Assembly (NCBI GenBank): GCA_963827235.1
Contig: CAWHAE010000009.1
Location: 64,001-128,000, forward strand
From: an uncultured bacterium
GTDB taxonomy: Bacteria > Chloroflexota > UBA5177 > JANWHV01
Length of the DNA stretch: 64,000 nt
Reading direction: 5' to 3'
The notes beneath the pieces are model-generated. The model did not search any database, was not told the origin of the DNA, and saw only the letters and a program-made list of their open reading frames with translations. The position numbers and the translations under genes are program-made. Positions 39,504-60,680 of the stretch are shown in pieces (the first letter of the stretch is position 1; each line of letters opens with the position of its first letter).

Positions 39504-40385
39504 ATGTCCATCCTCGTCACCGGTGCCGGCGGGCACCTCGGCCGCCAGGCGGTAGCGCACGTGCTCGAACGCGTGCCGGCCGGCCGGGTAGCGGTAGCCG
39601 TGCGCGCTCCCGAGAAGGTCGCCGACCTGCGGGCCAGGGGCGTGGAAGTCCGTCAGGCCGACTACGACAAGCCGGAGACCATGGCAGCGGCCTTTGCCCA
39701 CGTCGACACGCTGCTGCTCATCTCGACCAATGGACCGGACGATCTGCGCGTCGTCCAGCACCGGGCAGCGGTGGCAGCCGCGCAGTCCGCGGCGGTCAAG
39801 CACCTCATCTACACCTCTGCCACGGACGCCGATACCAGCAAGCTCGGCGTGGGGCGCGTGCACAGGGAGACCGAGCAAGCGATCAAGGCCTCGGGCCTGA
39901 CCTACACCTTCCTGCGCAACGCCATGTACACCGACAACTGGACGGCCGCCGCGCCGCAGTATGCGTCTTCCGGCATCGTGGCCGCCAACACCGGCGACGG
40001 GCGCATCGCCACGGCAACGCGATCAGACCTGGCGCTGGCGGCAGCGGTCGTCGCCACCACGAGCGGGCACGAGAACAGGACCTACGAGCTTACCGGTCAC
40101 GAGCTCTGGAGCTTCGCGGACCTGGCCGCCGAGGTGGCGCGCCAGACCGGCAGGCCGGTCCGCTACAACGCCATCGGCGACGACGAGCAGCGCGCGTTCT
40201 TCGCCGGCATCGGACTGCCCGGCTTCCTGATCGAGACGCTGGTGGACATCCAGGCCGGTATCGCCAGGGGAGAGCTCACCACGCGCACCGGCGACCTGGC
40301 ACGGCTGATCGGCCGACCCGCCCAAACCCTGGCGGACTCCGTCGCCGAAGCGCTGCTCGCCGCCGGCCAGTTGGCCCAAGCGTAG
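39504..40385 (+). CDS. NmrA-like/SDR NAD(P)H-binding oxidoreductase (QorB/YtfG-like)
   Basis: ILVTGAGGHLG, ADYD, HRETEQAI..SGL.YTFLRN, YELTG; AAGGAG RBS; divergent from hxlR. Confidence 0.88.
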   Translation: MSILVTGAGGHLGRQAVAHVLERVPAGRVAVAVRAPEKVADLRARGVEVRQADYDKPETMAAAFAHVDTLLLISTNGPDDLRVVQHRAAVAAAQSAAVKHLIYTSATDADTSKLGVGRVHRETEQAIKASGLTYTFLRNAMYTDNWTAAAPQYASSGIVAANTGDGRIATATRSDLALAAAVVATTSGHENRTYELTGHELWSFADLAAEVARQTGRPVRYNAIGDDEQRAFFAGIGLPGFLIETLVDIQAGIARGELTTRTGDLARLIGRPAQTLADSVAEALLAAGQLAQA

Positions 40386-40719
40386 CACCTCACTGGGCCG
40401 AGCAGGGCACAGTGCACCGGGCCGCCCGAACGATGCGGCCCGGCGCACTGCGCCTCCTGCCGGATAAGCGGCGCGGCGATTGGCCGCGTCCCCCAGATGA
40501 ATGGGCTCACATGGTCTCGCTCTCGAGCTCTCGCGCGGCTCCGTGGCAGGCTCAGGGCCGAGACGGCCCCGCGGCGCGGGCGCCAATACTGGACTCATCC
40601 GCCCTCTCGCCGATGCCGCCGCACGGCTCGCGGCTGCCGGCGAGGTGCCTTGCATCCGGCCGCAACTCGAGGTCCTGTACCCCCCACACCACGCAGCTGG
40701 GAGGACGCCGCCAGCTGGA

Positions 40720-40950
40720 CTACGTGGTCATGAAAGCGATCACGGCAAGTGTGTTTTGTAGCGCGTGCAGGATCATGCAGCAGTACACCGACCGCGTCCG
40801 CTCCAGGACGAGCGCCTGCACCACGCCCAGAAAGAACAGCTCCGGGAAGATCACGGGAATGCAGTGCACCGCGGCGCAAGTGTCCCGCCGAATCCGCCCC
40901 AAGCGTAGCAGGTCTCCTGGGAAGCGCAATAGTCGTTCTGGGTGAAAGCC
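40720..40950 (-). pseudogene. C-terminal remnant of a CPBP (CAAX/Abi) intramembrane metalloprotease
   Basis: AAVH...P.LFFLG..ALVLERTRS..C.ILHALQN motifs; N-terminus absent. Confidence 0.6.
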
Positions 40951-41179
40951 CAATCTGCCTCCTGTCGTGGGCATCCAGATGCGCATCTGCTTCCGTTCGG
41001 TGTATAGTAGGGTCCGTATGTAGCAGATCGGCGGTGAGCCGGCGCCGCGTGCCCGGGCGGGAAGGCTGGACGGGTACGTTCGGTCGCTGCCCGGCGCCGC
41101 GGTTCCGCCAACCGGCAGCGCTGCATGCCCGTGCCCCGTTCCGCGCATCCGTGCCGGTTGGCGGCAGAAGGCTGGCCCG

Positions 41180-41644
41180 ACGACGACACAGCAGAACAGA
41201 CCGGCGGCGTTCAAGAGCTTCGCCGATCTGCGGAGACAGCTCGAGGCTGAGCCCGATGACCTCGAGCCATTCATCGCCGCGGATCTGCCGTTTGGCGCGT
41301 TCTACTGGGTCCCGGACGAGGAGTCGTGCTTCGGCTATCGCGACAACCACCCCTGGGTGATCGTCATTCCCTACCAGGCCGGCCGCATGACCGTTTCGGC
41401 CTCCCCGCGCACGTCCTGCCGTTCCGAAGCGCGCGACCGCTCCGAGCTCGCCACTCCCGGCGGGCTCGTGGTGGGCCTCGACCGTGACGGCGTCATCGTC
41501 CTGGACAGGCGCCAGCCCTTCCCTGCCCTGAGCTTCCGACGCTACCACTACATCGGTCGCCTGCCCGAGGCATGGCAGCGCCGGCTGCGGGAGGCGCTTC
41601 TGGCCGAGGGACATCGCATCGCCCGCGAGAGCGAGGCATCCTGA
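41180..41644 (+). CDS. Hypothetical protein with MazF/PemK-like pattern; probable ACG start
   Basis: Frame open 41024-41644; FGAFYWVPD..HPWVIV..ASPRTS..GLDRDG.IVL..YIGRLP; AGAAGG 8 nt before ACG; TGATG overlap with the next gene. Confidence 0.6.
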   Translation, partial: TTTQQNRPAAFKSFADLRRQLEAEPDDLEPFIAADLPFGAFYWVPDEESCFGYRDNHPWVIVIPYQAGRMTVSASPRTSCRSEARDRSELATPGGLVVGLDRDGVIVLDRRQPFPALSFRRYHYIGRLPEAWQRRLREALLAEGHRIARESEAS

Positions 41645-42645
41645 TGGACCTTCAGGCTCTGCTCGAGGAGTACTCCTCCTCGGGTTTCGGCGACCTGCTC
41701 TACCGCGAAGCGCTGCTCACGGTGCACGCCGTCGTGCGCGGACACCGCTACCCCACCGGCTATTCGCCGACCGGAATCTGGGACGACGATGCTTTCGGCG
41801 CCCTCGCCCACGACTGGGTGATGAACAAGCTCATTCGTCGCGGACAGCTCGACCACCTGCTGCTCACCAATCAGACGCTGCGCGGCTTCCGCAAGGGACT
41901 CGAGCTCTCGTTCGTGGACTTCCTGATCGGGCAGCGCAAGCGCACCGCACTCGATAATCTCTTCGACCGCGCCGCGGCCATCCTCGAGACCGATCGCCGG
42001 TTCCACCTCTTTCTCGACAGCCGGAAGCGGGCGTCGCGCTTCTGGGGCCTCGCCGCGTGGTCGTCGCCCCGTCCCTACCAGGGCTCGGACGACGACCTGA
42101 TCGCCGCCGGGCTCCGGCAGCAGGGCGTGCGGCTCATCCACTACCGCGGCGATGCCCGTAAGCACAGCCCGGTGCTCGGCGACCATGATCTCGGCGATCT
42201 GCTGGCCTCCCTGCTCGACGATCTCGGCCGCCTGCTCAGCCTCGCCCACTTCACCACCATCTTCGCCTACCGCTTCGATCTGCTCGATGCGGCGGTGCTC
42301 AGCACGGAGCAGCCCGCGCCCGGCGGATTCTCGCCCGGCACGCTGACCCTCGGCGACACACTGCGCTCCGATGCACCGGCCGTGGATGCCCGGCTGCTCG
42401 TGGACGAAGCGGCATCGACCGTGTTGCCGGCGCTCTCGGACCGGCAGCGCCGCGCCCTGCTGGCCTACGCCCGGCCGGATGCCACGCTCACCTCCGTCGC
42501 CGTGCTGCTCGGCTGTTCGAAGAGCACCGTCGACAACGAGCTGCGCCGCGCCCTGGCGTCGATTCGCCGGCAGGCCGCGGACGCCGACGAGGCTGAGCGT
42601 ATCTATGCTCGCCTGCTCGAGCACCTTGCCTCCGCTATCATCTGA
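41644..42645 (+). CDS. Divergent sigma70/ECF-like protein with C-terminal region-4 HTH
   Basis: LSDRQRRALL..TLTSVAVLLGCSKSTVDNELRRAL; VLSTEQP...TLGDTL linker; followed by a zf-HC2 protein. Confidence 0.6.
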   Translation: MDLQALLEEYSSSGFGDLLYREALLTVHAVVRGHRYPTGYSPTGIWDDDAFGALAHDWVMNKLIRRGQLDHLLLTNQTLRGFRKGLELSFVDFLIGQRKRTALDNLFDRAAAILETDRRFHLFLDSRKRASRFWGLAAWSSPRPYQGSDDDLIAAGLRQQGVRLIHYRGDARKHSPVLGDHDLGDLLASLLDDLGRLLSLAHFTTIFAYRFDLLDAAVLSTEQPAPGGFSPGTLTLGDTLRSDAPAVDARLLVDEAASTVLPALSDRQRRALLAYARPDATLTSVAVLLGCSKSTVDNELRRALASIRRQAADADEAERIYARLLEHLASAII

Positions 42646-42722
42646 GCCATGGCGCCGCCGGTTGGAAATCGTGGGCGAAGCGCTGTTTGAGTCTCGTGCG
42701 GTGATCGCGGAAGGGAGGCGTC

Positions 42723-43880
42723 ATGGCGATGCAGCAACCGCCTGAAAGCACCTGTCCCGCCGCCGGCGATCTCGCCCTCTACCTGGCGAGCCGGCTTCCG
42801 GAGGCAGACCGGATGGCCGTTGCCGCCCACCTCGAACGATGCACGCGCTGCCCCGAGATCGTCCGCAACCTGCAGGAGGCGGACACGGCAAACGGGATGA
42901 TTGGCGTTGCCGCGCAATCGTCGCCCGCCAGGCTGCGCGAGGCGCGGGCAGCCGGCGAGCAGCCGGCGCGACGGTTCCGCGAGTTGCTGAGCCGGCCCCG
43001 GCCCGACCATCTGCGGTTTGGCCAGTGCTGGACGGTGGCGGCACCGGGCAACCCACCCGACGACGAGTGCGCCGCCGAGGCGCGCATCGTCGTGCTGCTG
43101 GCCGGCGACCCGGCGGCCGCCGTCGCCACGGCGCCCATCTCGCTCGCGCTTCCCTATTGCTCGCCGGACGATCTGCTCGTGCGCGCGGACGAAGGACCGC
43201 TTGGCTACGCGTTCATGATCGAGGCCTGGAATACCGTGACCGTGCTGCGCGATCAGCTCGCACGCTACGCCGGCACGCTCCAGCAGCCGGTGAAGCGCTT
43301 CCTGGGACTGCTCTGCCAATCCCAGCTTGGCCTGCCCGTCGACCTCTCGGAGCTCGAGACGCGCCGTGGCCCGGCGATACTCGAGAGCAGCGATCCTCGC
43401 CTCCGGTTCCAGGAGCAGGAGATCCTCGCCTGCGCGCATCTGCGCCGGCCCGCGCTGCGCGCGCTCGAAGCGCCGGTCGCCGCTCCGGCGGCGCCGGAAG
43501 CGCATCCGTTTGCCGGCATCGTGGCCGAGGGCAAAGCGCGCGGCCTCACGCTGCACCAGATCGCCGAACGGCTCGGCCTCACGCCCGCGCTGGTGCGCAG
43601 GCTCGACCTGCGGGCCTTCCGCTTCGGCCCGCGCGAGCGGCCCGTGGCGGCGGCGATCGGCAGCCTTCTCGGCTGGGATCTCGCGGCACTGGCGCACTAC
43701 CTGCAGCAGCGGCCCGCTCTGGCACCCAACGCCAGCTTTCGCGCCGATCGGGCCCCCGAGACTCAGGAGCAGCAGGACTTCTTCGAGGCCGTGCGCGCGG
43801 ACCCGCGATTGACCGATGAGCAGCGAAGCCGCTGGTTGCGCCTGATGGACCCCGGCGAGCAGGAAGTCCCTCCCACGTGA
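42723..43880 (+). CDS. Multidomain protein: zf-HC2 anti-sigma + MazF/PemK-like + XRE-like HTH
   Basis: HLERCTRC; GQCWTV..RIVVLL..APIS..DQLARYAGTL; RGLTLHQIAERLGLTPALV; GGGAGG RBS. Confidence 0.65.
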   Translation: MAMQQPPESTCPAAGDLALYLASRLPEADRMAVAAHLERCTRCPEIVRNLQEADTANGMIGVAAQSSPARLREARAAGEQPARRFRELLSRPRPDHLRFGQCWTVAAPGNPPDDECAAEARIVVLLAGDPAAAVATAPISLALPYCSPDDLLVRADEGPLGYAFMIEAWNTVTVLRDQLARYAGTLQQPVKRFLGLLCQSQLGLPVDLSELETRRGPAILESSDPRLRFQEQEILACAHLRRPALRALEAPVAAPAAPEAHPFAGIVAEGKARGLTLHQIAERLGLTPALVRRLDLRAFRFGPRERPVAAAIGSLLGWDLAALAHYLQQRPALAPNASFRADRAPETQEQQDFFEAVRADPRLTDEQRSRWLRLMDPGEQEVPPT

Positions 43881-46800
43881 GCCACTGGGATGCGATCCGC
43901 GCCCAGGCGCGCGCGCACCACGACACGCTGATCGCGCGGGCGGAAGGCAATCCCGCCGCGGAGGCGCTGCTGGCGGCTGCCGAGGCGGTGAGCGGCATCG
44001 CCAGGGAGCCCGTTCCGCCCGGCGATGCATTGCTGGCCGGCGGCGCAGCAGTGCTCGACCGTGAAGCCGGCACGATCTGGTTCGACAACGGTGTCGAGCC
44101 GTGGCAGGCCCTCCTCACCCAGGCACACGAATACGGGCACTTCTGGCTGGGTGACGATCACGGCGCCTGCAGCGCGACCGACGTCGACGCCGGCCTGGCG
44201 GACGATGACCTGGTCTCCGGCGCCGCGCGCGTGGAAGGGTACGGCCCGCGCGAGCGCCGGGAGCGCGAAGCCAACGTGTTTGCCCTGGAGCTGCTGCTGC
44301 CCACCGGCCTGCTGCGCCGCTGGTACCTTGGCGAAGGGCTGGATGCGCCGGCAATGGCCGCGCGCACCGGCCTGCCCGAATGGCTGATCGCGCCGCAGCT
44401 CAGCCGCGCCGTTCTCGTCTCGCTACCCGCCGGCGGCCCACGGCCCGAGGAGCCGGAGGGCGCCGCCATGGACCCGCTTGCCCTCGACCCGAGCCAGGCG
44501 TCCGCCGCCTTCGCCCCGCGCGGTCCGCTCCTGCTCGAAGCCGGGCCCGGCACGGGCAAGACACGCACGCTGGTCGGCCGCCTCGCCCACCTGCTCCGGC
44601 AGGGCGTGCCCCCGGCCGCCATCCTGGCCCTCACCTTCTCCAACAAGGCGGCGGAGGAGATGCGGCAGCGAGTGGCACGGGCCGCTCCCGGGGCGGCGCT
44701 CGGCATCTGGATGGGCACCTTCCACGCCTTCGGCCTCGACCTGCTGCGCAAGTACGGTACGCGCATCGGATTGCCGGCCGATCCCGTCGTGCTCGACCAG
44801 ATCGACGCCCTCTTCCTGCTGGAGGATGCCCTGCCGGATCTGGATCTCGCGCACTACCAGAACCTCTACGAGCCCACCATGTACCTGCGCGACATCCTGG
44901 GCGCCATCTCGCGCGCCAAGGACGAGCTGATCGGGCCGGACGAGTACCGGGCCCTCGCCGATCGCATGCGGGAGTCCGCCGGCGACGACGGTGAGGTGGA
45001 AGCGGCCGAGAAGGCGCTGGAGGTGGCCCATGTCTACGCCGTCTACCAGGCGCGCCTCGAGCAGGACGGCCTGCTGGACTTCGGCGACCTCATCTTCCGC
45101 CCCGTCACGCTGCTGCGCTCGCACGCGGATATCCGCGCGCCGGTTCAGGCCACCTACCGGCATGTCCTGGTCGACGAGTACCAGGACGTCAACCGCGACG
45201 GCGGGCTCTTCCTGCGCGAGATCGCCGGGGACGGCGCCGGACTGTGGGCGGTGGGCGACGTTCGGCAGGCCATCTACCGCTTCCGTGGCGCCGCGCCGGC
45301 CAACATGCGGCTGTTCCGGGGCGACTTTCCCGGTGCCCGGGTCTGCTCGTTGCGCCGCAACTACCGCTCGCAGCCCGCCGTCGTCCAGGTCGTCGCCGGC
45401 CTGGCGCCCCGCATGCTGGCCACGGCCGGCGAAGCATTCGCCCCATGGGAGACCGATCGCCACGCCGCCGGCGGCAGCGTCCGTTTCGAGCTGGCGGTGG
45501 ACGAGGAGGCCGAGGGTGCCGGGCTGGCAGCGGATCTACGGCGCAACCGGGAAGCCGGCGTCCCCTACCGCGATCAGGCCGTGCTGTGCCGCTCCCATAC
45601 CGGGCTGGAGCGCATCGCCGCGATCCTGGAACGGGCCGGCATTCCCGTGCTCTACCTCGGCAATCTCCTCGAGCGCGAGGAGATCCGCGACCTGCTGGCC
45701 CTCCTGTCCCTCGCCTGCGAGGGCAACGGCTCCGGCTTGGTCCGCGTGGCCCGCTTGCCCGAATACGGCATCCCGCTCTCCGACGTCCGCGCCCTCCTGG
45801 CCGCGGCGCGCGAGCAGCAGATCCCCTTCCCCCGCGCGCTCGAGCTGGCCGGGGAAGCGCCGCTCCTCCCTGCCTCGGGGCATGCCGAGCACCTGCCGGT
45901 GGCCGGCGCTGCAGACCGGGCAGACGGGGCGACCATCGCCCAAACGCCGGACCGGGCAGAACACGTGCACCGTCCCCATCCGCACGACCCGGCGGAGCAG
46001 GCGAGCCCGCCCGGCGCTGCCGATGTGCCCCGCCACCCGCCCGCCCTCTCGGCGCAGGGCAGGCGGGGACTCTCACTGCTGGCCCGGCACCTGGACGGCA
46101 TAGCCTATGGCAGCTCGCCGGCCGGCTTCCTCCACGCCTACCTCTTCACGCGCGGCGCCTACCTGCGGCCGCTGCTGGCTGATACGTCGGTGGTGGGCGA
46201 CCAGAAGCGCATGGCCCTCTACCAGTTTCTCCAGTTCGCCCAGGCGTGGCAGCCCCGGGAGCGCGACGCGCACCGTGAGCCGAGGCAGGCCTTCCTGCGC
46301 TACGTGCGCCGGCTGCGAGCGTTCGGCGAAGATCGCGCCCTGCGCCAGCTGCCGGACTGGGCGGAGTCGCTCGACGCCGTCCGCCTGCTCACCGTGCACG
46401 CCTCCAAAGGCCTGGAGTTCTCCGCCGTCTACCTGCCGCGCCTGGGGCAGGGCATGTTCCCGGCCAGGGGGCAATCCCGGGCCTGCCCGCCGCCCAGGGG
46501 CATGCTGGCGGCGGAGCGTGACGAAGACGCCGAGGAGGAGGAGTGCCTGTTCTTCGTCGCCCTCTCCCGGGCGCGCGATACCCTCTGCCTGTCCCGCGCG
46601 CAGCGCTACGGCAAGCGGAACAGCAACGCCTCGCCCCTGCTCGCGCACCTCGCCGGCCTACTGCCCGCTCCTCCAACGCCGACCTGGACCGCGGCCTCCC
46701 TCGCCGCCCCGGGCGCTCCACCAACCTCCGATGCCGGGTCTGCGTCGAAGACCGCGTCCGCGCCGGACACTCCGCCCTCGCTGGATTCCCTGTCCGCCTC

Positions 46801-47707
46801 TTATGCCGCGCCGGCGCTGGACCCCGTGCCTTCGAGCGCTATCGCGCCGGCGACAGATGCTCCTCCGGCCGCCAACACCGCGGCCGTGCTGGATGTGACG
46901 TCTGCGCTGGATGCCCCGCGGTTCACCGCGGGGTCTCTCACGGCGCGCCAAGCGCGGACTTCAGTCCGCCCCCCTGCCGGCGCCCACCCGACCCTCCGTG
47001 CGGAGGTGCTCGAGGTATACCTCGACTGTCCCCGCCGGTTCTACTACGAATACCTGCTCGGACTGGGCGGGCACCGCGATGACACCGCCTACGTCCAGTT
47101 CCATCGCTGCGTCTACGGCGTGTTGCGCTGGCTCCAGGAGCAGCGCGCCGCCGGCCAGGAGGTCGACCTGCCTGCTGCACGGGAACGGCTCACCGCGTTG
47201 TGGCAGGCGCACGGTCCGGTGGACCATCCCTACGAGGCCATCTACCGGCGCGATGCCGAGAAAATGGTGGCGCGTGCCGTCAACCGCCGGGTACAGGGAT
47301 TTGGCCGTCCGGTGCGGCAGGACATGACGGTGCGCCTGGAGCACGGCTCCGTCTCGCTGCGGCCCGACCACGTCGAGGTGAGCGACGACGGCGCCGGCCG
47401 CTCGGTTCTCGTGCAGCGGCTGCGCACGGGCCGCGTGAGCAAGAGCGAAGCCGACAAGGACATATACGCCCTCTACCAGCAGGCCGGCGCCGAGGCCTTT
47501 CCAGAGGCGAGCGTCACCGTGCAGACCCTGTACCTGGCCACCGGCGAGACCCAGGACATCCGGATCCACGAACGGAGCATCTCGACGCGACTCGCCCACT
47601 ACGATCAGGCGTTTCTCGGTATCACGGACGGCGACTACCACGCGCGCCCCGACGACCGCCGCTGCCCGCGCTGCCCGCACTACTTTGTTTGCCCGAGTGG
47701 ATCGTGA
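43877..47707 (+). CDS. ImmA/IrrE metallopeptidase - UvrD/PcrA helicase - PD-(D/E)XK-like Fe-S domain fusion
   Basis: HEYGH and EREANVFALELLLP; AGPGTGKT, LTFSNKAA, DEYQD, GDVRQAIYRFRGA, NYRS, TVHASKGLEF, EEECLFFVALSRA; CPRRFYY..RPD..CPRCPHYFVCP. Confidence 0.9.
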   Translation: MSHWDAIRAQARAHHDTLIARAEGNPAAEALLAAAEAVSGIAREPVPPGDALLAGGAAVLDREAGTIWFDNGVEPWQALLTQAHEYGHFWLGDDHGACSATDVDAGLADDDLVSGAARVEGYGPRERREREANVFALELLLPTGLLRRWYLGEGLDAPAMAARTGLPEWLIAPQLSRAVLVSLPAGGPRPEEPEGAAMDPLALDPSQASAAFAPRGPLLLEAGPGTGKTRTLVGRLAHLLRQGVPPAAILALTFSNKAAEEMRQRVARAAPGAALGIWMGTFHAFGLDLLRKYGTRIGLPADPVVLDQIDALFLLEDALPDLDLAHYQNLYEPTMYLRDILGAISRAKDELIGPDEYRALADRMRESAGDDGEVEAAEKALEVAHVYAVYQARLEQDGLLDFGDLIFRPVTLLRSHADIRAPVQATYRHVLVDEYQDVNRDGGLFLREIAGDGAGLWAVGDVRQAIYRFRGAAPANMRLFRGDFPGARVCSLRRNYRSQPAVVQVVAGLAPRMLATAGEAFAPWETDRHAAGGSVRFELAVDEEAEGAGLAADLRRNREAGVPYRDQAVLCRSHTGLERIAAILERAGIPVLYLGNLLEREEIRDLLALLSLACEGNGSGLVRVARLPEYGIPLSDVRALLAAAREQQIPFPRALELAGEAPLLPASGHAEHLPVAGAADRADGATIAQTPDRAEHVHRPHPHDPAEQASPPGAADVPRHPPALSAQGRRGLSLLARHLDGIAYGSSPAGFLHAYLFTRGAYLRPLLADTSVVGDQKRMALYQFLQFAQAWQPRERDAHREPRQAFLRYVRRLRAFGEDRALRQLPDWAESLDAVRLLTVHASKGLEFSAVYLPRLGQGMFPARGQSRACPPPRGMLAAERDEDAEEEECLFFVALSRARDTLCLSRAQRYGKRNSNASPLLAHLAGLLPAPPTPTWTAASLAAPGAPPTSDAGSASKTASAPDTPPSLDSLSASYAAPALDPVPSSAIAPATDAPPAANTAAVLDVTSALDAPRFTAGSLTARQARTSVRPPAGAHPTLRAEVLEVYLDCPRRFYYEYLLGLGGHRDDTAYVQFHRCVYGVLRWLQEQRAAGQEVDLPAARERLTALWQAHGPVDHPYEAIYRRDAEKMVARAVNRRVQGFGRPVRQDMTVRLEHGSVSLRPDHVEVSDDGAGRSVLVQRLRTGRVSKSEADKDIYALYQQAGAEAFPEASVTVQTLYLATGETQDIRIHERSISTRLAHYDQAFLGITDGDYHARPDDRRCPRCPHYFVCPSGS

Positions 47708-49046
47708 ACTGGATTGCCGCTATGCCCCAAGCTCGTCGCAGTCCAGGAGTATTGACTATGTCTTCACTGATCCGCCATACGCTGGCAAGGAGCAGTATGG
47801 TGAACTCAATTATGTCTGGGAAGCATGGCTTGGTTTGAACACACAATGGCTCGATGAAGAAATCATTGTCAATTCGGTACGTGGCAAGAGTGAAGCCGAC
47901 TGGGCGGCCATGATGCGGCGCGCTATGACCGAGTGTTATCGCGTGCTCAAACCAGGTCACTGGCTCTCGCTGTGCTTTCACGGTACGACCGGCACCTGGA
48001 CAATTGTTCATGATATTATGGCCGAGGCCGGCTTTCTTCCTGACAGCGGCGACAGGGCCCTCTTTATCGACACCGACCAGAAGACATACAACCAGAATAC
48101 TGCCGACAACGTGCCAATGCCCGACCTGGTGATCAACTTTCGCAAGCCGCGTCCAGTGGAGACAGGCGGCTTGGCCATTCTTGGCGACGAGGATCTCACC
48201 ACCTTTGCCGAGAAGGTGCGCGCCGTGATCCGTGGCTATCTGCTCGCCCACCCTGGCGAGACCAAGGATCGTATCTACGACGAGGTTGTCAGCGCGATGG
48301 TGCGTGCCGGTCGCATGGAGGCGCACAACTTCGACGAGTTGCTGACCCAGGTGGCCGACGAGACAATCGAGCTGCAAGGACGTGGTCGGTCGGGCGATGG
48401 TTTGGCCGACGGCCGTGCGCCATATGAGATTCACTGCTGGTATCTGACGGACAGCGAAAGTGATGTCGTGGATGCCGCGGAGACCGCGAAAGAGGACCGG
48501 TCAGCCGCTATGCTTGGCGCCTTCGTCGAAGCGCGGATGCAAGCACAGCCGGATCTGGACGGCGTGCACTACAGCCACCTGTTTGAGAACTACATCCACA
48601 GCGTGAAAGACAAGCCCCGGCGCGAATTGGCCGATTGGCTTGCCGACTATTTCTTCCGCTCCGCGAGCGGTAGCTATCGCCTACCTGAATCCGAAGAAGA
48701 GGAGCAGGCAAAGACCTCCGCGCGAGCAGCGGGCGTCAACCGCCACATCAAGCGCTATCTAGCGTATATCAAGCAGGGCGTGGCGATTCCGGAGCGCGAC
48801 CGGCAGGGCGCGGCGACGCTGGCCGAGTGGGTGCGCAAGTGCAAGCGGACCGGACTCTACGACGAAGGCAAGCTCCTCTACGAGCAGGGAGGGCTTACGC
48901 TTGACGCGTTGAGCGAAGAGCATCAGGTCGAAGTCGAAGAGGACTATGCTACCTGCGTTCGCATGCTGGAACGCACAGGCAGCGTCCAGAAGACGGTACC
49001 AAGAGGCAGGAGAGTGATAACGACGGACGCACCTACCCTATTCTGA
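47708..49046 (+). pseudogene. 5'-truncated N6-adenine DNA methyltransferase
   Basis: SIDYVFTDPPY motif IV within ~20 codons of the upstream stop; ECYRVLKPG; no motif I and no RBS/start. Confidence 0.75.
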
Positions 49047-49168
49047 CAGGTTGTCGTTGGGCTGTCGGAGCGGTAGCAGTACCACCAGCCACTAGTCAGG
49101 GTTTGGGAGATCGACCAGGTTTGACTACAGCGATAGCGGCATCGGTCCGAGCAGATGACTGCTGAATG

Positions 49169-49197
49169 TTGTGAAGTGATAGCGCAGGTGCTATCAT
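49169..49197 (+). promoter_or_regulatory. hicAB promoter overlapped by a palindromic operator
   Basis: TTGTGA 49169-49174, 17 bp, TATCAT 49192-49197; TGATAGC-N6-GCTATCA 49177-49196. Confidence 0.7.
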
Positions 49198-49218
49198 ATG
49201 AGTGTCATCGGTACTACT

Positions 49219-49458
49219 ATGTCGCGGATTGAGAAGCTTATCGCGCTGATCAGGAAGCGTCCGGTGGAGGCGGAGTTCGATGATGTCGCGACTGTGCTGG
49301 AGCATTTCGGCTGGAAAGCCGCTCGGACCAAGGGAAGCCACGTCTCGTTTACCAAGGCAGGGGAAGCGCCGATCGTGATCCCGAAGAAGCACGGGAGGAA
49401 GGTCAAGCGCGTCTACCTTGACGACCTATCTGGCCGCCTTGGTCTGGATGACGACTGA
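49219..49458 (+). CDS. hicA: HicA family toxin (mRNA interferase)
   Basis: LEHFGW..RTKGSHVSF..IVIPK; catalytic GSH His. Confidence 0.88.
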   Translation: MSRIEKLIALIRKRPVEAEFDDVATVLEHFGWKAARTKGSHVSFTKAGEAPIVIPKKHGRKVKRVYLDDLSGRLGLDDD

Positions 49459-49507
49459 CGTCGAGCCGCAGTCTCACACGTATTAAGAGATCACGTTGGG
49501 GTGACAC

Positions 49508-50032
49508 ATGACTTCTGCACCACGCAAGACTCTGGAAGAGTACCTTGCCCTCGAGTATCCGTTTGAAGTGAAAGTCGATCCGGAAGGCGGCTACGCCGTT
49601 CTGTTTCCGGATCTACCCGGCTGCTACACCGAGGCTGACACGCTCGAGGAGCTGCCGGCGACGGTGGCTGAGGCGCGCGAACTCTGGCTGGAGACCGCAT
49701 TCGAGCAGGGCGTCGACATCCCGCTGCCCTCCGTGCCGGAAGAGTGCAGTGGGAAGATTCTGCTGCGCGTGCCGAAGTCTCTTCACCGACGGCTGCTCGA
49801 TCAAGCCGCGCGGGAAGGTGTGAGCTTGAATCACTATACGAGCAACGTGCTGGCGCGCGGTGACACACAGCTAGCAGTTGAGCGCAGACTCGACTCAATT
49901 GACCTCCGGCTAGATATGCTGGCCGAACGACTACAGCGCTATGCAGTGGAGGTACGGCGTCCGCGCGGCGAGTCCACGCTCAAAGTGATCTATGGTAGTG
50001 CCAAGCCGGGCGAGTATGCGAAGGCAATATGA
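49508..50032 (+). CDS. hicB: HicB family antitoxin with RHH domain and C-terminal extension
   Basis: GGYAVLFPDLPGCYTEADTLEE..IPLP; SGKILLRVPKSLHRRL..EGVSLN; ~55 aa extra tail. Confidence 0.9.
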   Translation: MTSAPRKTLEEYLALEYPFEVKVDPEGGYAVLFPDLPGCYTEADTLEELPATVAEARELWLETAFEQGVDIPLPSVPEECSGKILLRVPKSLHRRLLDQAAREGVSLNHYTSNVLARGDTQLAVERRLDSIDLRLDMLAERLQRYAVEVRRPRGESTLKVIYGSAKPGEYAKAI

Positions 50033-50568
50033 GCAGCACGAACGAAGAGGACGTGCCATCGTCGGTGAGCCCGAGCGAGTACGGAAAGTTCATCGGGCAG
50101 ATCGAACTGCTTTCTATCTGGTTAGCACGCGCCGAGGTCGAGAATAGAGCCGGGCCAGAACCACCGGCAAGAGGAAAGTTCAGCATAGAAGACGACTCCA
50201 CCTGGGCGCCGCAGCCAGGCGTTGGCTTCGTGGTGAACGATCGCTACACCGTGGAACTGCATGGCGAGACGAGCCTGGCGATGAGCGTTAAGGCGGAATA
50301 TGCGGTGCTCTATCGATCGTCGACTCCTCTCACAGACGAGTTGTTCCAGGTTTTCAAGCGCGTGAATCTGCCTCTCAACGTCTGGCCCTACCTGCGCGAA
50401 TACGTGTCCAGCACGATGGGACGCTTCGGCTGGCCGCCGTTCACTCTGCCCGCGTTCAAGGTGAACACCCCGCGCGACAATCAGGATGGGTCGGCGGAGC
50501 CAGCGAAGAAAGGGCGACGCGCTGTGGGCAAGACTCGCGTCTTGACCGAGCCAGTCAGCCGTGAGTAA
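50029..50568 (+). CDS. SecB-like chaperone
   Basis: FKRVNLPLNVWPYLREYVSSTMGRFGWPPFTLP SecB signature; ATGA overlap with hicB. Confidence 0.8.
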   Translation: MSSTNEEDVPSSVSPSEYGKFIGQIELLSIWLARAEVENRAGPEPPARGKFSIEDDSTWAPQPGVGFVVNDRYTVELHGETSLAMSVKAEYAVLYRSSTPLTDELFQVFKRVNLPLNVWPYLREYVSSTMGRFGWPPFTLPAFKVNTPRDNQDGSAEPAKKGRRAVGKTRVLTEPVSRE

Positions 50569-50616
50569 GCAAGCTGGCAGGGTTGTCGCGCAATTGGGAG
50601 CAGCACGAACCTCCAA

Positions 50617-52637
50617 GTGCGCTCGGTGTTTCGCGGCAAGGTGGTGAACAAGGCTCACACCATCAACACCGGTGTCGACGAGTTCCCACGTTACGTGGTG
50701 GAATACCTGATCGACAACTACTGCTCCGAGGACACGTTCCAGCAGGACATGGAAAAGGTGGTGCGGCGCCTGAAGGATGCCTTCGTCTACGGCGCCGAGG
50801 CGGAGAAGATCCGCCATTACATCCGCGAGTCGCGGCGCCACTCGGTAATCGCCAGTCTAGAGGCTCGCTTGGTCGAGACTGAAGACAAGTACTGGGGCAC
50901 TATCTCGGCGATCAACGAGGATTTCGTGAACATCCCGGAAGCGATTGTACGCCAGTACCCGATGTTGCTGTCCGGCGGGATGTGGGGCACGATCGAGCTG
51001 ACCTACGACGAAACCGAAATCTACAGTGGACGAATCCGGCCGTTCAAGGTGCTGACTTTCACCCAGTTCCAAGTCAGCGTGATAAACCTGGACGAGTACA
51101 TCGATAAGCGGAAGGAGTTCAGCGCTGACGCATGGACTGATCTGATGATCAACTCGTGCGGATTGAACCCTGCGGTGATGACGCGAAGGCAGAAGTTGCT
51201 GTACCTGTGCCGGTGCATTCCGCTTGTCGAGCAGAACTGCAACATGATCGAGTTGGCGCCGCGTGAGACCGGGAAGACATACCTGTACCGGAACATCTCA
51301 TACTACGCGCACGTGCTGTCCGGCGGCAAGGCCACGCCGGCGCAGCTCTTCGTCAACCTGAACACGGGCAAAATTGGCGAAGTGGGCACGCGCGACGCCG
51401 TGGTGTTCGACGAGATCGCCAATACAGATTTCACGGACCCCGAGGCGTTCGTCAGCATCATGCAGGGCTACATGCAGGATGCGAAGTTTAGCCGGGGCAA
51501 GAAGGAGCTGCTGGCGTTTGCCAGCCTGGTCTTCGTCGGCAACATCGACGTACAGGGTAGCCAGCCGCATGAGAAGTACTACCATCTGTTCGAGCCCCTA
51601 CCCGACTTCATGCAGGTGATCGCCTTTCTGGACCGCATCCACTCGTACCTGCCGGACTGGGAACTGCCGAAACTCTCGCCGAACAGCTATGCTAGGGATT
51701 ACGGCTTCATCGCGGACTACTTCTGCGAGATCATGCACGAGCTGCGACGTACGGATCTGGTGCAAAGCGTGCACCGCCGCTTCGAGCTGCTGGACACGGC
51801 GAAGACATCCCAGGGCGTCTCCGGTCGCGACCAGCGCGCGGTGCTCAAGAGCGTATCGGGCCTGCTCAAGCTGCTCTATCCGGACGGTCACATAGAGGAT
51901 GACGCGCTGGAGGAAGTCCTGCTCCTGGCGTGCGAGCTGCGCCAGCGCGTACGGGATCAACTCCATCTGATCGCACCGGGAGAATACGATCGCGTCAAGC
52001 TTGGCGTACGCATGACAGCCACAGATAGGGAGATTGCGCCTACCGTGCCGGAGAGCGGTCGTGTGCAGCGTGTCACGGCCCGCGAGTATCCGGCAGTGGG
52101 CGAGGTGACTGGCCTTGCCGTCAGCGGAGACCATGGGACGCTGCTATCGTTTGAGATGCAGGCACTAAAAGGCAAGGGGCGCATCACCGCGCTCGGCTCG
52201 ATGCAGCGAGTGATGAAGGAGAGCGTTGAAGCAGCGGTACAGTACATCCGCGGACATGCCAAGGATCTTGGAATCAACCCAACCTGGCGCGACAACTATG
52301 ACGTCGCCGTCCTGGCCACATTCATGGGTTGGCCAAAAGAAGGGCCTTCTGCCGGGGTGACGATCGCCACAGGCATCGTCTCGGCATTGACAGGCAGGAA
52401 GGTGCGCGCCGACCTGGCCATGACCGGTGAGATAACGATCATTGGGAAAGGTGTTGCCGGTCGGCGGGATCCAGCAGAAAGTGCGCGCTGCATTTGACGC
52501 CAAGATCAAAGAGGTCCTGCTACCGGCACAAAAAACTCGCCGACGCCCAGCTATTGCCGTCCTACATTCTGGAGGCGGTCACGTTGACCCCAGTGACGAC
52601 GGTAGAGGAGGTACTGCAGAGCGCACTGCTTGATTGA
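50617..52637 (+). CDS. brxL: BrxL-like AAA+/Lon protease with two frameshifts near the 3' end
   Basis: [50 protein letters not shown]; [12 protein letters not shown] and [12 protein letters not shown] continue in shifted frames (~52447, ~52530). Confidence 0.8.
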
Positions 52638-53106: not shown

Positions 53107-53643
53107 ATGACACGTGTCTCAATGCGCGACCGGTACGTTCGCGCAGTAGCCAAGTATATCGTCGACCACTACAACAGCCAGCCCCTTCCGAGCATCGAGC
53201 AGCTCATCGAAATCAACGGCAGCACCGGGTTCCCCGTGGCCATCGAGGTACGGAGTGCCATGAACGTCACTAGCGTGGCACTGCAGGACGATGAATTGGA
53301 AGCCGCACACAGGCTCGCCAAGAACGCGATCGTGGAGCAGGTGCCTCACTTCCCCATCGAGCAGGCACGTATCCTGGCTCAGGTGGTCAAGGTGTGGCGG
53401 CCGAGTACCAACGACATCCAGCGCGCCAAGCTGATCAGTCGCGTAAAGCAGTGGCTCGCCGACGCCAAGCTTGAAGGCAATCACGATAGCCTGCTTCAAC
53501 GACTCACCACGCTCACCCCGAAAGAATCATCAGCGCTCATCAACGCGCTTCTGCGCGCCAGCCGTGGCACACTCACGGACCAGGCTCTCCAGGCAAGCGG
53601 CATACTCCTTCTCCCTGTCAATAGACGCCCAGGCTCCCGCTAG
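53107..53643 (+). CDS. Hypothetical protein
   Basis: GAGGT RBS, protein-like composition, no recognised motif. Confidence 0.55.
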   Translation: MTRVSMRDRYVRAVAKYIVDHYNSQPLPSIEQLIEINGSTGFPVAIEVRSAMNVTSVALQDDELEAAHRLAKNAIVEQVPHFPIEQARILAQVVKVWRPSTNDIQRAKLISRVKQWLADAKLEGNHDSLLQRLTTLTPKESSALINALLRASRGTLTDQALQASGILLLPVNRRPGSR

Positions 53644-54413
53644 TCTTGTGCCTTCGGGCTCGCACCGCGGGCTGTCCGGGCAAGGTCGCGGCAGCGGTCG
53701 GCTGCAAACCTCTATTGCCGGTTGGAGGTCCGCGATGCAAGACATTGCGAGCGATGACGGGTTGCGTCGCCTGTCGTCTGCAGGTGACGGCTACATCTAC
53801 AGGGCAGTCGGCGAAGCCACTTACGACGCGACGGCCCGACAAGTACTTCGCCGCCGACCTGGAGACGGCGGAACGCTGGCTCCTGGCCCACAGGCGAGGC
53901 AACCGGAAGCGGTGCGGAACCTGCGCGCCGTAGCTGCAGGCAGAGAGTCCGGCGCCGCACCCGGGCGAAGGCGAGCGGACTGCCCTGAACGTCGATCCGC
54001 AGGCACCCTCGAGGGCGTTGGCAAAGCGGCTCGACGCCCTGTTTGTAGAACACAGGACGATGAACGGGCAGCGGCACGGATCACGCTACGGCTCACGTCG
54101 CGGACGAACGGACTGCCGCTCTATCCTGTGCGGCTTCGACTGCCATGCCAGAATCCAGTCTTTGGACGTCGGCCACGCATTTGACAGGCTTCGGTCTTGC
54201 TGGAACGCTGGCGCCCCATCTGAAGAACTGGCATGCCAAGTCCCAGCCGAACCAGGTGTGTCTGAAGTCACCCGTCGATGGCCCTCAGGCGAGCTTCGGC
54301 CGGCCGATATTCTACAACACGCAGCCTGCATTTGCTGGACAGGTGCTGCTCCAAGGGCTGGCTCACAGCAGTTGTGCAAGTAAGCCAACGGGCTCGAGGA
54401 AAGGAGCGACGCG

Positions 54414-55439
54414 GTGACTCAACAGGTGACGGTGCGGGAACGCCTCGCAACATGGCTCGGAAGCCAGTCGAGGAGTCTAGCCAGCTTTTCGGAACCGGTG
54501 TTGTACGCTTATCTGGCTGAACAGATCGGGGCTCAGCCTGAGGAAGTTCGTGCGGCCGTCTGTACGGAAGGCCCTCCAGTCTACGCCCTGTTCGAGCATC
54601 TCTGGCAAGGACGATGGTCGCCGAGCAAGCCGTTCGCACTCTACGGGTATGACTCAAACCATTGCGTGCTCGATTGGGAGATCTCTCTCGTCGCTGGTTT
54701 TGCCCAATGGTTGACAGCGCAGGGCTACGTCGCCGTGCGCGAGTTCGGCGGCTCCGTACATACTCAGCATCTTGCGCTTGGCGGCACTCTCCACGGTCTC
54801 CAGGCCGGCACGAATCAGCGGGACCTCGCCGCGCACAAGGATACGCGCGACCCACAAGATCTCTGGCTTTTCGAGGCCAAGGGGAAGGTTGCAGGTGGGT
54901 TTGACATTTACGAGTCCGCGGAGGCGCTTGGGCAGATCTTCATGTATCCCGATGCACTGCTAAGCGGGCTGCTCGGCAGCAAGAGTTCGCGTGTAGGTGG
55001 ACACCTGTGGAACATCGTCGACCAACTTGGCGATGGTTGGATTGCGGGCGGACGACGCACTCACCTTGCTGCGGTCGTCCCAGCATTCTCGCCAACGCCG
55101 GTCTGGCAGGGTGGTGGTAAGGTCACGATGCAGCCACGGCCGTACTATGAGCGCCCCGTGCAGCGTGTGCTGGACTTCGTTCAGAATCGGAATGCTCTCG
55201 TCTCGCGGGCCGTCTTTAAGCAGGACGTGTTGTTCGCTGAGGTTCTCGGTGCAATTGAGACGCGGTATGGGCTGAGCGACCTCGTGGCAGGCAATGGTCC
55301 TGTAACCTTCCACATCGTGGAACTCTCCACGACGCCCTCTGGCGAGTTGAGGGTATACGATCGGACCAGGGAAAGTCTGTGGGTGCCCGCGCTCGCAAAC
55401 GCCGCAAACGCCCGTGCCGGGCCTTGCTATCGCACCTAA
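54414..55439 (+). CDS. Hypothetical protein with PD-(D/E)XK nuclease-like motif
   Basis: AAGGAG RBS; E..L..WL..GY.AVRE..RDLAA..LWLFEAKG..ALGQI. Confidence 0.55.
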   Translation: MTQQVTVRERLATWLGSQSRSLASFSEPVLYAYLAEQIGAQPEEVRAAVCTEGPPVYALFEHLWQGRWSPSKPFALYGYDSNHCVLDWEISLVAGFAQWLTAQGYVAVREFGGSVHTQHLALGGTLHGLQAGTNQRDLAAHKDTRDPQDLWLFEAKGKVAGGFDIYESAEALGQIFMYPDALLSGLLGSKSSRVGGHLWNIVDQLGDGWIAGGRRTHLAAVVPAFSPTPVWQGGGKVTMQPRPYYERPVQRVLDFVQNRNALVSRAVFKQDVLFAEVLGAIETRYGLSDLVAGNGPVTFHIVELSTTPSGELRVYDRTRESLWVPALANAANARAGPCYRT

Positions 55440-55537
55440 TAGCCCGTTAGCTGCGACAGCACGGTACGGCCTGCTAGCACAGGAGCAGAGCCGATCCCAA
55501 GGCCTTTGCCTTGTGCAGGTGCCAAGAACCCGATCCA

Positions 55538-60478: not shown

Positions 60479-60680
60479 GCGGATTGAAATCCGCATCTTG
60501 GCCGGCCATGAGGCTCCCCGGGCTGAAGCCACGGGGAATCGTATCGGAAATCACGCCCACTCGCAGAGCCCGCGACCGCAGCCTGCGCACCACATCCGGC
60601 CGCAGCCAGCCCGCGCCCTGCCATCCGACCGCAGTCGGAGGCTCCCGTCCCCCGTCCATCCGACCGCAGTCGGAGGCCCC
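60479..60680 (+). repeat. Hairpin cluster: REP-like, IS200/IS605-end-like and CNCA-loop hairpins
   Basis: GCGGATT-GA-AATCCGC 60479-60494; TCCCCGGGCT-GA-AGCCACGGGGA 60515-60537; TCCGAC-CGCA-GTCGGA at 60624-60639 and 60659-60674. Confidence 0.65.

Follow-up and report, generated by a model that had tools for sequence, protein, structure and literature searches.

A sigma-like factor, a docking partner and an M78 peptidase–helicase–nuclease fusion form a putative transcriptional controller of bacterial ubiquitin-like operons, present as a probable hybrid orphan in a Chloroflexota genome

Introduction

Among the described controllers of bacterial immune operons, those closest to the locus studied here are CapH and CapP, in which an M78-family metallopeptidase, when bound to single-stranded DNA (ssDNA), cleaves a helix-turn-helix (HTH) repressor (bioRxiv 10.1101/2022.04.27.489752). 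The pair is found upstream of cyclic-oligonucleotide-based antiphage signalling systems (CBASS), defence island systems associated with restriction–modification (DISARM) and two types of ubiquitin-related operon, with a sigma-70-family factor as well in 24 CBASS systems, and related proteins govern the mobilisation of prophages and mobile elements (bioRxiv 10.1101/2022.04.27.489752). In this paper we analyse a cassette of four genes in a 64,000-nt stretch of contig CAWHAE010000009.1 from an uncultured bacterium of the Chloroflexota (the whole stretch is hereafter called the window). Gene 4 encodes an M78 peptidase fused to a UvrD-type helicase and a Cas4/AddB-like nuclease domain, gene 3 its putative docking and anti-sigma partner, gene 2 a sigma-like protein, and gene 1 a protein with the MazF fold.

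Of 544 Bub operons, 43 have CapW and 168 have CapH with CapP (PMC11601596), and CapK with CapS occurs in a further 59 (PMC13373217); both CapK with CapS and CapW/BrxR are DNA-damage-responsive controllers upstream of Bub and other immune operons (PMC13373217). Among Type II Bil operons, 25 of 162 carry a divergent capH/capP pair, the orientation being divergent in all but one case (bioRxiv 10.1101/2023.09.26.559546). Bil has been tested under an inducible rather than a native promoter (bioRxiv 10.1101/2022.05.11.491447), and phage protection by Bub operons has not yet been demonstrated (PMC13373217).

Relatives of gene 4 stand, together with a partner gene and a sigma-like gene of their own, directly 5' of Bil and Bub operons in many phyla, and a bipartite promoter motif recurs at defined places in these loci. 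We put the probability that the locus is a transcriptional controller cassette, made of the sigma-like factor, the partner and the M78–helicase fusion, and not an effector system, at about 60%. Below we describe the family, its promoter motif and the four proteins of the window, and then weigh this reading against its rivals.

Results

Layout of the cassette

The four genes lie on the + strand in one direction and have high third-position guanine–cytosine (GC) content (Table 1, with coordinates numbered on the window; loci of other genomes are numbered L001 upward). The frame of gene 1 overlaps the start of gene 2 in a TGATG (41642–41646) and gene 3 overlaps gene 4 in a GTGA (43877–43880), as an earlier reading made from the DNA alone (hereafter the sequence-only reading) had noted, and genes 2 and 3 are spaced by 77 bp on the same strand.

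The sigma–partner–fusion trio in other genomes

The fusion family is large. Among 8000 scored candidates, 5932 belong to it at E<=0.001, and most of the 120 fusion proteins listed are about 1130 residues long and carry PF06114, PF00580 and PF12705. Neighbourhoods were compared in the best 80 of 536 gene 4 relatives, found in a scan of one genome per species, and the open reading frames (ORFs) of these 80 loci were clustered all-against-all. The loci span Chloroflexota, Acidobacteriota, Gemmatimonadota, Alpha-, Beta- and Gammaproteobacteria, Planctomycetota and others, with a patchy distribution of the fusion across phyla.

A co-directional partner ORF of about 190–235 residues ends at the start of the fusion gene in 76 of the 80 loci, and a sigma-like gene of about 270 residues precedes the partner in 67 loci by BLAST clustering and in 75 by hidden Markov model; two of the five loci without it have no upstream flank. 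These sigma-like proteins have Sigma70_r4_2 and a weak TIGR02937 match that reaches into region 2. The C-terminal 115 residues of the partners are homologous to residues 254–379 of gene 3 (hhalign probability 98.4%, E 4.8e-15; phmmer finds 30 of 78 upstream ORFs), and this domain alone is detected when a profile of the whole partner is aligned with the gene 3 protein, P0003. The linkage assumed by the sequence-only reading recurs in other genomes, as the partner–fusion pair in these loci and as genes 1–3 in metagenome loci described below.

Downstream of the fusion gene, a Bil or Bub operon follows directly in 66 of the 80 loci. It comprises BilA, BilB, BilC and BilD in 29 loci and in two more that are cut by contig ends, Bub type II (Multi_ubiq, DUF6791+ThiF, DUF6527) in 21, and Bub type I (a JAB+ThiF fusion and DUF6527) in 14; the Bil genes of L011, for example, match PADLOC profiles at E 1e-49 to 2e-171. 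With L022 and L069, where Bub genes lie divergently 5' of the trio, the number of loci with Bil or Bub neighbours rises to 68. Five loci outside the 66 have no downstream sequence, and in L003, L021, L027, L045, L064 and L067 neither a Bil or Bub operon nor CBASS or PARP genes were found within a downstream flank of at least 4.6 kb. The distance from fusion to effector operon has a median of about 84 bp over 63 measured gaps. One trio standing before several types of effector is the mark of a portable controller of the adjacent operon.

Two loci widen the range of neighbours. L069 has its Bub type II operon divergently 5' (1964–4320) and, 3' of the fusion gene, a CBASS pair made of a SAVED effector and a CD-NTase with AGS_C (10297–13580); the promoter motif described below stands right after the fusion gene, before the CBASS genes, and one controller may here serve two systems. 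In L002, from a Chloroflexia metagenome-assembled genome, the trio is followed by a protein with WGR and PARP catalytic domains (10629–11915; PARP E 2e-34) and no ubiquitin-like operon; the same controller may here govern an effector with ADP-ribosylating activity.

A promoter motif at three positions

The gaps between fusion and effector contain a bipartite element, TT(T/A)CCGGT, 16–17 nt and CGAT(T), that is visible by eye across phyla. A loose form of it occurs in 45 of 63 gaps; in 200 shuffles the number averaged 0.26 and never exceeded 2. The strict form, T[TA]CCG-N17-CGA[TC], has 152 sites on the coding strand of the 1,267,279 bp of loci and 22 on the opposite strand. Strict sites concentrate at three positions. 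In 46 of 75 loci one stands before the effector operon, in the fusion–effector gap; in 37 of 78 one falls within the 3' part of the sigma-like gene, about 100–200 nt short of the partner gene; and in 22 of 77 one precedes the sigma gene.

A fixed spacing, a repeat before the sigma gene itself and a site before the attached effector are what one expects of the private regulon of an extracytoplasmic function (ECF)-type sigma factor, and this promoter architecture is our main argument that the trio controls transcription. The site before the partner gene suggests that partner and fusion are induced together with the effector, in a negative-feedback or reset loop.

Gene 4 and its fused domains

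The sequence-only reading had recognised gene 4 as a peptidase–helicase fusion, which holds, and had missed the PDDEXK_1 domain at its C-terminus. The N-terminal Peptidase_M78 match has E 9e-5 and 22.7 bits, compared with a cut-off of 22, and H84, E85 and H88 of its HEYGH are invariant in all 20 aligned family members. The helicase is matched strongly (UvrD-helicase E 2.2e-63). In the nuclease domain four cysteines, C1051, C1263, C1266 and C1272, are invariant, one N-terminal and three C-terminal, which we take to be the Cas4/AddB pattern; the L011 orthologue gives a weak Cas4 match. HExxH, Walker A, DEYQD and the four cysteines are all invariant across the 20-member alignment and all retained in gene 4. 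Specific to the window are two low-complexity inserts, one within the helicase and one just before the nuclease domain, both absent from at least 17 of the 19 other aligned sequences.

At the site where Cas4/AddB-type nucleases have (D/E)xK-TG, the whole fusion family has (E/Q)RLRTG (window 47380–47440, residues ~1177–1186), with R1181, T1184 and G1185 invariant. Judged by this motif, the domain may be a binder of DNA ends rather than an active nuclease.

The sequence-only reading had expected PADLOC to return nothing. That is so for genes 1–3, with no match at E<=0.01 (none for genes 1 and 3, and a chance-level one for gene 2 at E 0.034), and not for gene 4, which is matched through its UvrD core only, by RTasHel of the defence-associated reverse transcriptase (DRT) systems at E 2.2e-73 and by GajB of Gabija at E 1e-69.

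Gene 3 and its modelled docking on the peptidase

The N-terminal zf-HC2 domain of gene 3 is called by Pfam at residues 17–43 (E 8.1e-5, 23.1 bits compared with a cut-off of 22.2), with weak matches to anti-sigma families in NCBIfam, and residues 271–300 give weak HTH matches in Pfam. Of the structural model, only residues 260–375 are confident, with a predicted local distance difference test score (pLDDT) of 92–98. In Foldseek they resemble Xre-type HTH proteins, including the CapH N-terminal domain (7t5u; TM-score normalised by target (TMt) 0.70), DdrO and the 434 repressor, all at E>0.001. CapH and DdrO are known substrates of M78 peptidases.

Between these ends lies a middle domain with the conserved motifs RFGQxWT, APIS, ESPLGY, IEAWN, GPAIL, DPR and FQEQE. 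Its fold is possibly MazF-like: aligned with the gene 1 family it falls in register, at a non-significant level (hhalign E 0.016, probability 2.8%), and Atlas gives a weak PemK lead at 0.76. Foldseek returns the HTH alone for gene 3 because the middle domain could not be modelled (pLDDT <50 at residues 92–192). The sequence-only reading had described gene 3 as anti-sigma, MazF-like and HTH in one protein; its two ends stand, and the MazF-like middle is unproven. Seven full-length relatives were found: P0126–P0128 share all three parts, and the other four keep zf-HC2 and the middle domain with a different C-terminus.

A modelled complex of the M78 domain (residues 1–200) with gene 3 residues 250–385 scored 0.66 (best control 0.00) and passed a mark that 58 of 80 solved complexes attain, as do 2 of 110 mismatched pairs, a calibration that holds only roughly here since our own alignments were used for the complex. 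Between runs at least 57% of contacts were in common, and the partner had a pLDDT of at least 77. The model supports binding of the C-terminal domain of gene 3 to the M78 domain.

Genes 1 and 2

Searches with the gene 1 sequence against Pfam, NCBIfam, PADLOC and PDB sequences, the PemK_toxin profile included, found no match; the fold search resolved its MazF fold. An AlphaFold2 model built from the family alignment reached a pLDDT of 90.7, and Foldseek placed it best on 4of1_A (E 2.6e-5, TMt 0.72), with 74 PDB matches at E<=0.001; among those listed, all are MazF-family structures, which bears out the sequence-only assignment. An exhaustive search gave 52 representative homologues at E<=0.001, mostly of 140–165 residues, in which the motifs HPW and PRTS are near-invariant. 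The Thr of PRTS is conserved, and the position of the catalytic Arg of E. coli MazF, presumably the first residue of H/R-P-W, is mostly His. No MazE-like antitoxin ORF was recognised near gene 1.

Position 41180, given as the start of gene 1 by the sequence-only reading, is no start codon. The open frame runs from about 41023 to 41644, and similarity to homologues begins near 41210; the earliest ATG, GTG or TTG in frame is GTG 41357, inside the conserved fold at codon 60. In the closest homologue, P0133 (145 residues; 69% identity over residues 11–153), the first residue is aligned to an Ala codon of the window. Either gene 1 uses an unusual start codon in this genome or its start has been lost.

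Gene 2 was read as sigma-like from the sequence alone, which holds for region 4 (residues 258–310, Sigma70_r4_2 E 2.9e-6), the single region that Pfam matched. In NCBIfam it matches TIGR02937 at E 6.5e-6, under the cut-off of that model, and its matches among PDB profiles are to region 4 or LuxR-type HTHs only. No family was matched by the N-terminal 245 residues. In its Atlas cluster at 0.95, 27% of the members have Sigma70_r2, a lead to a divergent region 2 in the N-terminus.

A second putative controller type and the hybrid in the window

Genes 1 and 2 found no match in the 80 fusion loci by tblastn. A metagenome scan with the gene 3 family gave 31 loci, many of them near-duplicates and perhaps of six lineages, in which homologues of the three genes are adjacent; identity is 53% for gene 2, ~40% for residues 1–249 of gene 3 and up to 51% for gene 1, and no helicase match was found in these 31 triad loci. 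In nine of them the triad is followed by a protein of about 790 residues with Lon_C and RNase_HII (791 residues in L086), in eight a protein with tetratricopeptide repeats (TPR) and a cold-shock domain (CSD) comes next, and in six Prok-E2_E and ThiF genes lie further on. A DUF499 ATPase stands 5' of the triad in four loci, L086 among them.

A TGGAAA-N14-22-TAWAAA element lies 5' of the gene 1 homologues in L086–L092, L099 and L100. It is absent 5' of gene 1 in the window, where the nearest likeness, TTGGAAAT, falls between genes 2 and 3. That match is the single one in the 64-kb window, and 36 of 100 shuffles contain at least one, which leaves it a lead to a possible promoter-like element.

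As judged by their gene content, there are two types of putative controller. Both combine a sigma-like protein and a partner with a protease that is fused to a nucleic-acid enzyme, and both are linked to ubiquitin-like conjugation genes. The window holds a hybrid of the two, with genes 1–3 of one type joined to the docking domain and fusion of the other. P0127 and P0006 each come from a contig of 53,076 bp, and P0128 and P0007 each from one of 9,053 bp; from these equal lengths we infer at least a few further occurrences of the hybrid.

State and surroundings of the window copy

The genome (7.98 Mb in 21 contigs) is 95.9% complete with 9% contamination. In tblastn of the whole genome with fifteen Bil, Bub, Lon–RNase HII, TPR/CSD, E2, E1, sigma-like and partner proteins together with genes 1–3, only a ~30% ThiF-like stretch on C16 was found besides the cassette. 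The partner is found in none of 60 relatives, including four genomes of the same genus, which makes the cassette accessory; 400 further genomes of the phylum have the C-terminal domain of the partner only, in four. The copy is a hybrid and probably also an orphan, its effector either lost or replaced by re-wiring to the low-GC neighbours, a foreign remnant with genes of bacteriophage exclusion (BREX) and toxin–antitoxin–chaperone (TAC) type.

The GC content of the cassette region is 0.68–0.73 and steps from ~0.70 to ~0.60 at 47.7 kb, exactly at the end of gene 4, which the low-GC block (47685–52497) directly adjoins. Of the downstream genes named by the sequence-only reading, the methyltransferase remnant, the TAC module and BrxL are present; its nuclease-like gene finds no Pfam family in the ORFs at 53107–53643, 53471–54184, 54414–55439 and 55414–56241. 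BrxL and the N6_N4_Mtase-like ORF are the BREX genes seen, no search having been made for others. On the 5' side the neighbours are ordinary genes, for an ABC transporter, an MBL hydrolase, HxlR and an NmrA-like protein. The ~800 bp from the NmrA-like gene to gene 1 (40386–41180) hold no convincing coding frame, tRNA or promoter-like site, and may be a scar left by recombination on the cassette's left side. A scan of 40300–49300 for sigma-70-type promoters and terminators gave nothing exceeding shuffles, a tRNA scan of the window gave none, and no integrase, relaxase or phage family was found among the window ORFs scanned.

Table 1. Features of the cassette, its surroundings and the second controller type (window coordinates unless a locus is named)
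Feature	Position	Strand	Basis or remark
Gene 1, MazF/PemK-fold protein P0001	41180..41644	+	Homologues, AlphaFold2 model, Foldseek
Gene 2, sigma-like protein P0002, 333 residues	41644..42645	+	Sigma70_r4_2
TTGGAAAT, candidate element	42662..42669	+	Within the 77-bp gap of genes 2 and 3; resembles the -35-like element 5' of gene 1 homologues
Gene 3, P0003, 385 residues	42723..43880	+	zf-HC2 and HTH
Gene 3 residues 1-56, zf-HC2 (HxxxCxxC) anti-sigma domain	42723..42890	+	Pfam; three helices, pLDDT 58-77
Gene 3 residues 85-250, conserved middle domain	42975..43472	+	Strongly conserved in 8/8 homologues
Gene 3 residues 255-375, Xre-type HTH	43485..43847	+	Shared with partner proteins beside fusion genes
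Gene 4, fusion protein, 1276 residues	43877..47707	+	Pfam: Peptidase_M78, UvrD-helicase, UvrD_C, PDDEXK_1
Gene 4 residues 1-190, M78 (IrrE/ImmA/CapP-type) metallopeptidase	43877..44446	+	HEYGH at residues 84-88
Gene 4 residues 203-910, UvrD/PcrA-type superfamily 1 (SF1) helicase	44483..46606	+	Walker A (GPGTGKT) and DEYQD intact
Gene 4 low-complexity insert 1, residues 662-721	45860-46039		Window-specific, within helicase
Gene 4 low-complexity insert 2, residues 957-1023	46745-46945		Window-specific, just before nuclease domain
Gene 4 residues 1044-1273, PD-(D/E)xK (Cas4/AddB-like) domain	47006..47695	+	PDDEXK_1 E 3.2e-11
N6_N4_Mtase-like ORF	Begins 47685	+	Overlaps gene 4 by 23 bp; DPPY motif; first 54/221 profile positions matched
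HicA	49198-49458	+	Pfam
HicB	49508-50032	+	Pfam
SecB-like ORF	50029-50568	+	With HicA and HicB, a TAC-type module
BrxL, full-length	50617-52497	+	E 4.3e-112
ADP-ribosylglycohydrolase	59273-60322		Beyond the low-GC block
IS200-like Y1 transposase	60498-61160		Beyond the low-GC block
ClpB/ClpC-like double AAA+ ATPase	61270-63525		Beyond the low-GC block
Second controller type (also L087-L092, L095, L099)	L086:4277-16407		MazF-fold, sigma-like, zf-HC2, Lon_C-RNase HII, TPR+CSD, 94-residue ORF, Prok-E2_E, ThiF E1

Discussion

A model for the controller

The mechanism that we propose would begin with the sigma-like factor (gene 2) held by gene 3 through its N-terminal anti-sigma zinc-finger domain, the Xre/CapH-like C-terminal domain of gene 3 being docked on the M78 domain of gene 4. 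The UvrD helicase and Cas4/AddB-like nuclease domains would sense abnormal DNA, such as ends, single strands, or phage or damaged DNA; engagement of this DNA would activate the M78 peptidase, and gene 3 would be cut. The freed sigma factor would then drive its own promoters and the adjacent effector operon, which in other genomes is BilABCD, Bub type I or II, or CBASS. In the window, gene 3 would have acquired the C-terminal docking domain that goes with the M78–helicase fusion.

The sequence-only reading had likewise supposed that the protease cleaves the partner and frees the sigma factor. That part fits the synteny, the HTH fold, the docking score of 0.66 and the three-site promoter; its other suggested output, release of RNase domains, is not borne out. 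Its wider claim of an undescribed, self-contained four-gene defence system probably falls, since the trio is elsewhere the 5' part of Bil, Bub and one CBASS operon and no such effector stands here.

Several observations weigh against the controller reading. In this genome there is no ubiquitin-like operon (Bil, Bub or E2) 3' of the cassette, and searches for BilB (DUF7665), DUF6527, Multi_ubiq and BilD found no match, with a positive control for the DUF6527 search only. Near the cassette there is no promoter motif of the Bil/Bub type, the lone strict match on the + strand of the window standing at 35590, and gene 1 has no canonical start codon. Region 2 was not detected in gene 2 by Pfam, NCBIfam or PDB profiles, and what gene 2 has in common with the sigma-like family of the Bil/Bub loci is region 4 only (hhalign E 7.3e-7, 73 columns). 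The partner family has no match in Pfam, zf-HC2 being absent from the eight partners scanned; the common partner N-terminus aligns with the anti-sigma domain of gene 3 in register and non-significantly (E 0.015, probability 2.9%), and at that level we do not claim a zinc-less anti-sigma domain for the common partners. The modelled interface lies on M78 residues 40–68, beside the HExxH site and not in it; the complex model is silent on cleavage, and a resemblance to protease–repressor pairs that the modelling program has seen may explain its pass. RLRTG in place of (D/E)xK-TG puts the catalytic competence of the nuclease domain in doubt. Synteny, finally, cannot separate a sensor or regulator from a co-effector.

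Alternative explanations

The rival that we take most seriously, while thinking it on balance unlikely, is that the window copy is an orphaned and decaying remnant, whose effector operon was lost when the low-GC BREX/TAC island recombined in at 47.7 kb and which is functionless or being lost. It is compatible with the controller reading of the family, from which it departs only in doubting that this copy still works. The missing Bil and Bub genes, the GC step exactly at the end of gene 4 with the next ORF overlapping it by 23 bp, a gene 1 that offers no ATG, GTG or TTG before codon 60 of its conserved fold, and two low-complexity inserts that other aligned members of the gene 4 family lack would all follow from decay. 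Genes 2, 3 and 4, however, are full-length open frames with high third-position GC content and keep all invariant catalytic residues of the family, and a Bil or Bub operon is likewise missing from six of the 80 loci that have 4.6 kb or more of downstream flank, so that effector-less or re-wired copies are not unique to the window. A more improbable account makes the helicase–nuclease fusion itself the effector, attacking invading DNA, with M78 domain, partner and sigma factor tuning its expression and Bil and Bub being separate systems of the same islands. The strongest PADLOC matches of gene 4 are indeed RTasHel and GajB, its UvrD, PD-(D/E)xK and four-cysteine architecture is that of AddA/AddB-type end processing, and through the copies of the motif ahead of its sigma and partner genes the cassette induces itself. 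Yet the effector operon follows the fusion at a median of ~84 bp with a shared promoter within the gap, four effector types (Bil, Bub I, Bub II, CBASS) behind the same trio are the signature of a portable controller, and gene 4 has neither a GajA-like partner nor an evident canonical (D/E)xK lysine.

Rather less credible again is stand-alone abortive infection by the four genes, in which proteolysis of gene 3 would free the RNase activity of gene 1, of the gene 3 middle domain or of both as the killing output, the sigma factor being a side branch. The confident MazF fold of gene 1, with its conserved PRTS and H/R-P-W at the site of the catalytic Arg of MazF, would suit such an output, as would the joint travel of genes 1, 2 and 3 in the metagenome loci and the in-register alignment of the gene 3 middle domain with the gene 1 profile. 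But gene 1 has no start codon here and occurs in 0 of the 80 fusion loci (tblastn), the MazF likeness of the middle domain is non-significant, and no ORF was recognised as a MazE-like antitoxin. Pairs of an M78 peptidase and an HTH protein are classic controllers of integrative and conjugative elements and prophages, and the cassette might be an ImmR/ImmA-type immunity module of an integrative mobile element that governs excision or transfer rather than defence; this we regard as very improbable. The IS200-like transposase in the window and the patchy distribution over phyla would be at home in a mobile element, as would the control of prophage and mobile-element mobilisation by related proteins (bioRxiv 10.1101/2022.04.27.489752). 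Against that, the window has no tRNA and, among its scanned ORFs, no integrase, relaxase or phage family, and the neighbours in 68 of the 80 loci are Bil and Bub operons, not mobility genes.

Two proposed switches and their meaning

Beyond the controller reading, we entertain a wider proposition at a little under even odds. In it, M78–UvrD–nuclease fusions would be the dedicated DNA sensors of a three-part switch, with its own sigma factor, an anti-sigma/docking partner and a promoter at three positions, that gates Bil, Bub I and II and occasionally CBASS or PARP; the Lon–RNase HII/MazF-fold cassettes would form a parallel switch, and the window would show both recombining through a domain swap in the anti-sigma partner.

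Since CapH and CapP with a sigma-70-family factor are already in print, the trio is a variant of that theme. The family-level picture, with its fusion, private sigma factor, docking/anti-sigma partner, three-site promoter and Bil/Bub linkage, appears to be absent from the literature searched. The word "helicase" does not occur in the accessible text of bioRxiv 10.1101/2022.04.27.489752, PMC11601596, PMC13373217, bioRxiv 10.1101/2023.09.26.559546, PMC11601603, bioRxiv 10.64898/2026.05.16.725639 or PMC1779556. The literature searched, main texts without supplementary tables, describes neither the helicase fusion nor the sigma factor and promoter that go with it; such tables may list the fusion as "CapP".

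If the proposal is true, it offers a first handle on the native-host triggers of Bub and Bil operons. A trio with a recognisable promoter makes the question of what switches them on directly testable with reporters, and suggests DNA ends or single-stranded DNA as the signal. For this genome the meaning is more modest: the cassette is accessory, probably an orphaned hybrid, and no new defence system in its own right.

Comparison with known systems

The ubiquitin-like protein, E2, E1 and peptidase (JAB or DUF6527) that make up Bil and Bub are found in neither the window nor the genome and are present 3' of the orthologous trio in 66 of 80 loci. As regards MazF/PemK toxins, the gene 1 model superposes on MazF structures but carries an additional pair of helices at the N-terminus and a long helix at the C-terminus, and gene 1 differs further in its linkage to a sigma/anti-sigma pair, in matching no PemK_toxin profile and in having no start codon here. 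With GajB of Gabija, DRT-associated UvrD helicases, AddA and RecB, gene 4 shares the UvrD/PcrA-type SF1 core, by strong profile matches, and with AddA and RecB also a C-terminal PD-(D/E)xK domain. Unlike in those systems, however, no GajA, reverse transcriptase, AddB or RecC/D partner stands beside it, and its N-terminal M78 domain and constant sigma and partner neighbours are specific to its family. Gabija in particular requires GajA, an ATPase/TOPRIM nuclease, together with GajB, and gene 4 resembles it by the UvrD core only.

Pairs of ECF sigma factors and zinc-binding anti-sigma (ZAS) proteins, in which regulated proteolysis frees the sigma factor, offer a second likeness, in that the region 4 sigma domain of gene 2 adjoins a zf-HC2 protein with HxxxCxxC, gene 3, and the related family repeats a bipartite -35/-10 motif of fixed spacing before its sigma gene, as expected for auto-regulated ECF sigmas. 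They differ in that gene 2 has no region 2 detectable by profile searches, that the anti-sigma domain belongs to a cytoplasmic protein which also has a middle domain and an Xre-type HTH, and that the protease here is an M78 peptidase fused to a helicase, in place of a site-1/site-2 or Clp protease. CapK with CapS and CapW/BrxR have the same genomic role and position as the trio but are unrelated proteins, namely a GHKL kinase with a protein of STAS and winged HTH domains, and a WYL repressor.

The closest likeness is to CapH/CapP and its relatives DdrO/IrrE-PprI and ImmR/ImmA, in which, as here, a gene for an M78 HExxH peptidase adjoins one for an Xre-type HTH partner; like CapH/CapP, the family sits directly 5' of Bil, Bub and CBASS operons. 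The peptidase of gene 4, however, is the N-terminal 190 residues of a fusion of ~1130–1276 residues with UvrD and Cas4/AddB-like nuclease domains, whereas CapP is a stand-alone peptidase with a C-terminal ssDNA-binding regulatory domain of its own. The HTH of CapH is N-terminal and followed by an oligomerisation domain; here it is C-terminal and preceded by a zf-HC2 or helical N-terminus. The trio is co-directional with its effector operon, whereas capH and capP are mostly divergent in Type II Bil (bioRxiv 10.1101/2023.09.26.559546). Control apparently runs through a dedicated sigma factor and promoter in place of de-repression, and the trio would thus extend the CapH/CapP principle from de-repression to the release of a sigma factor.

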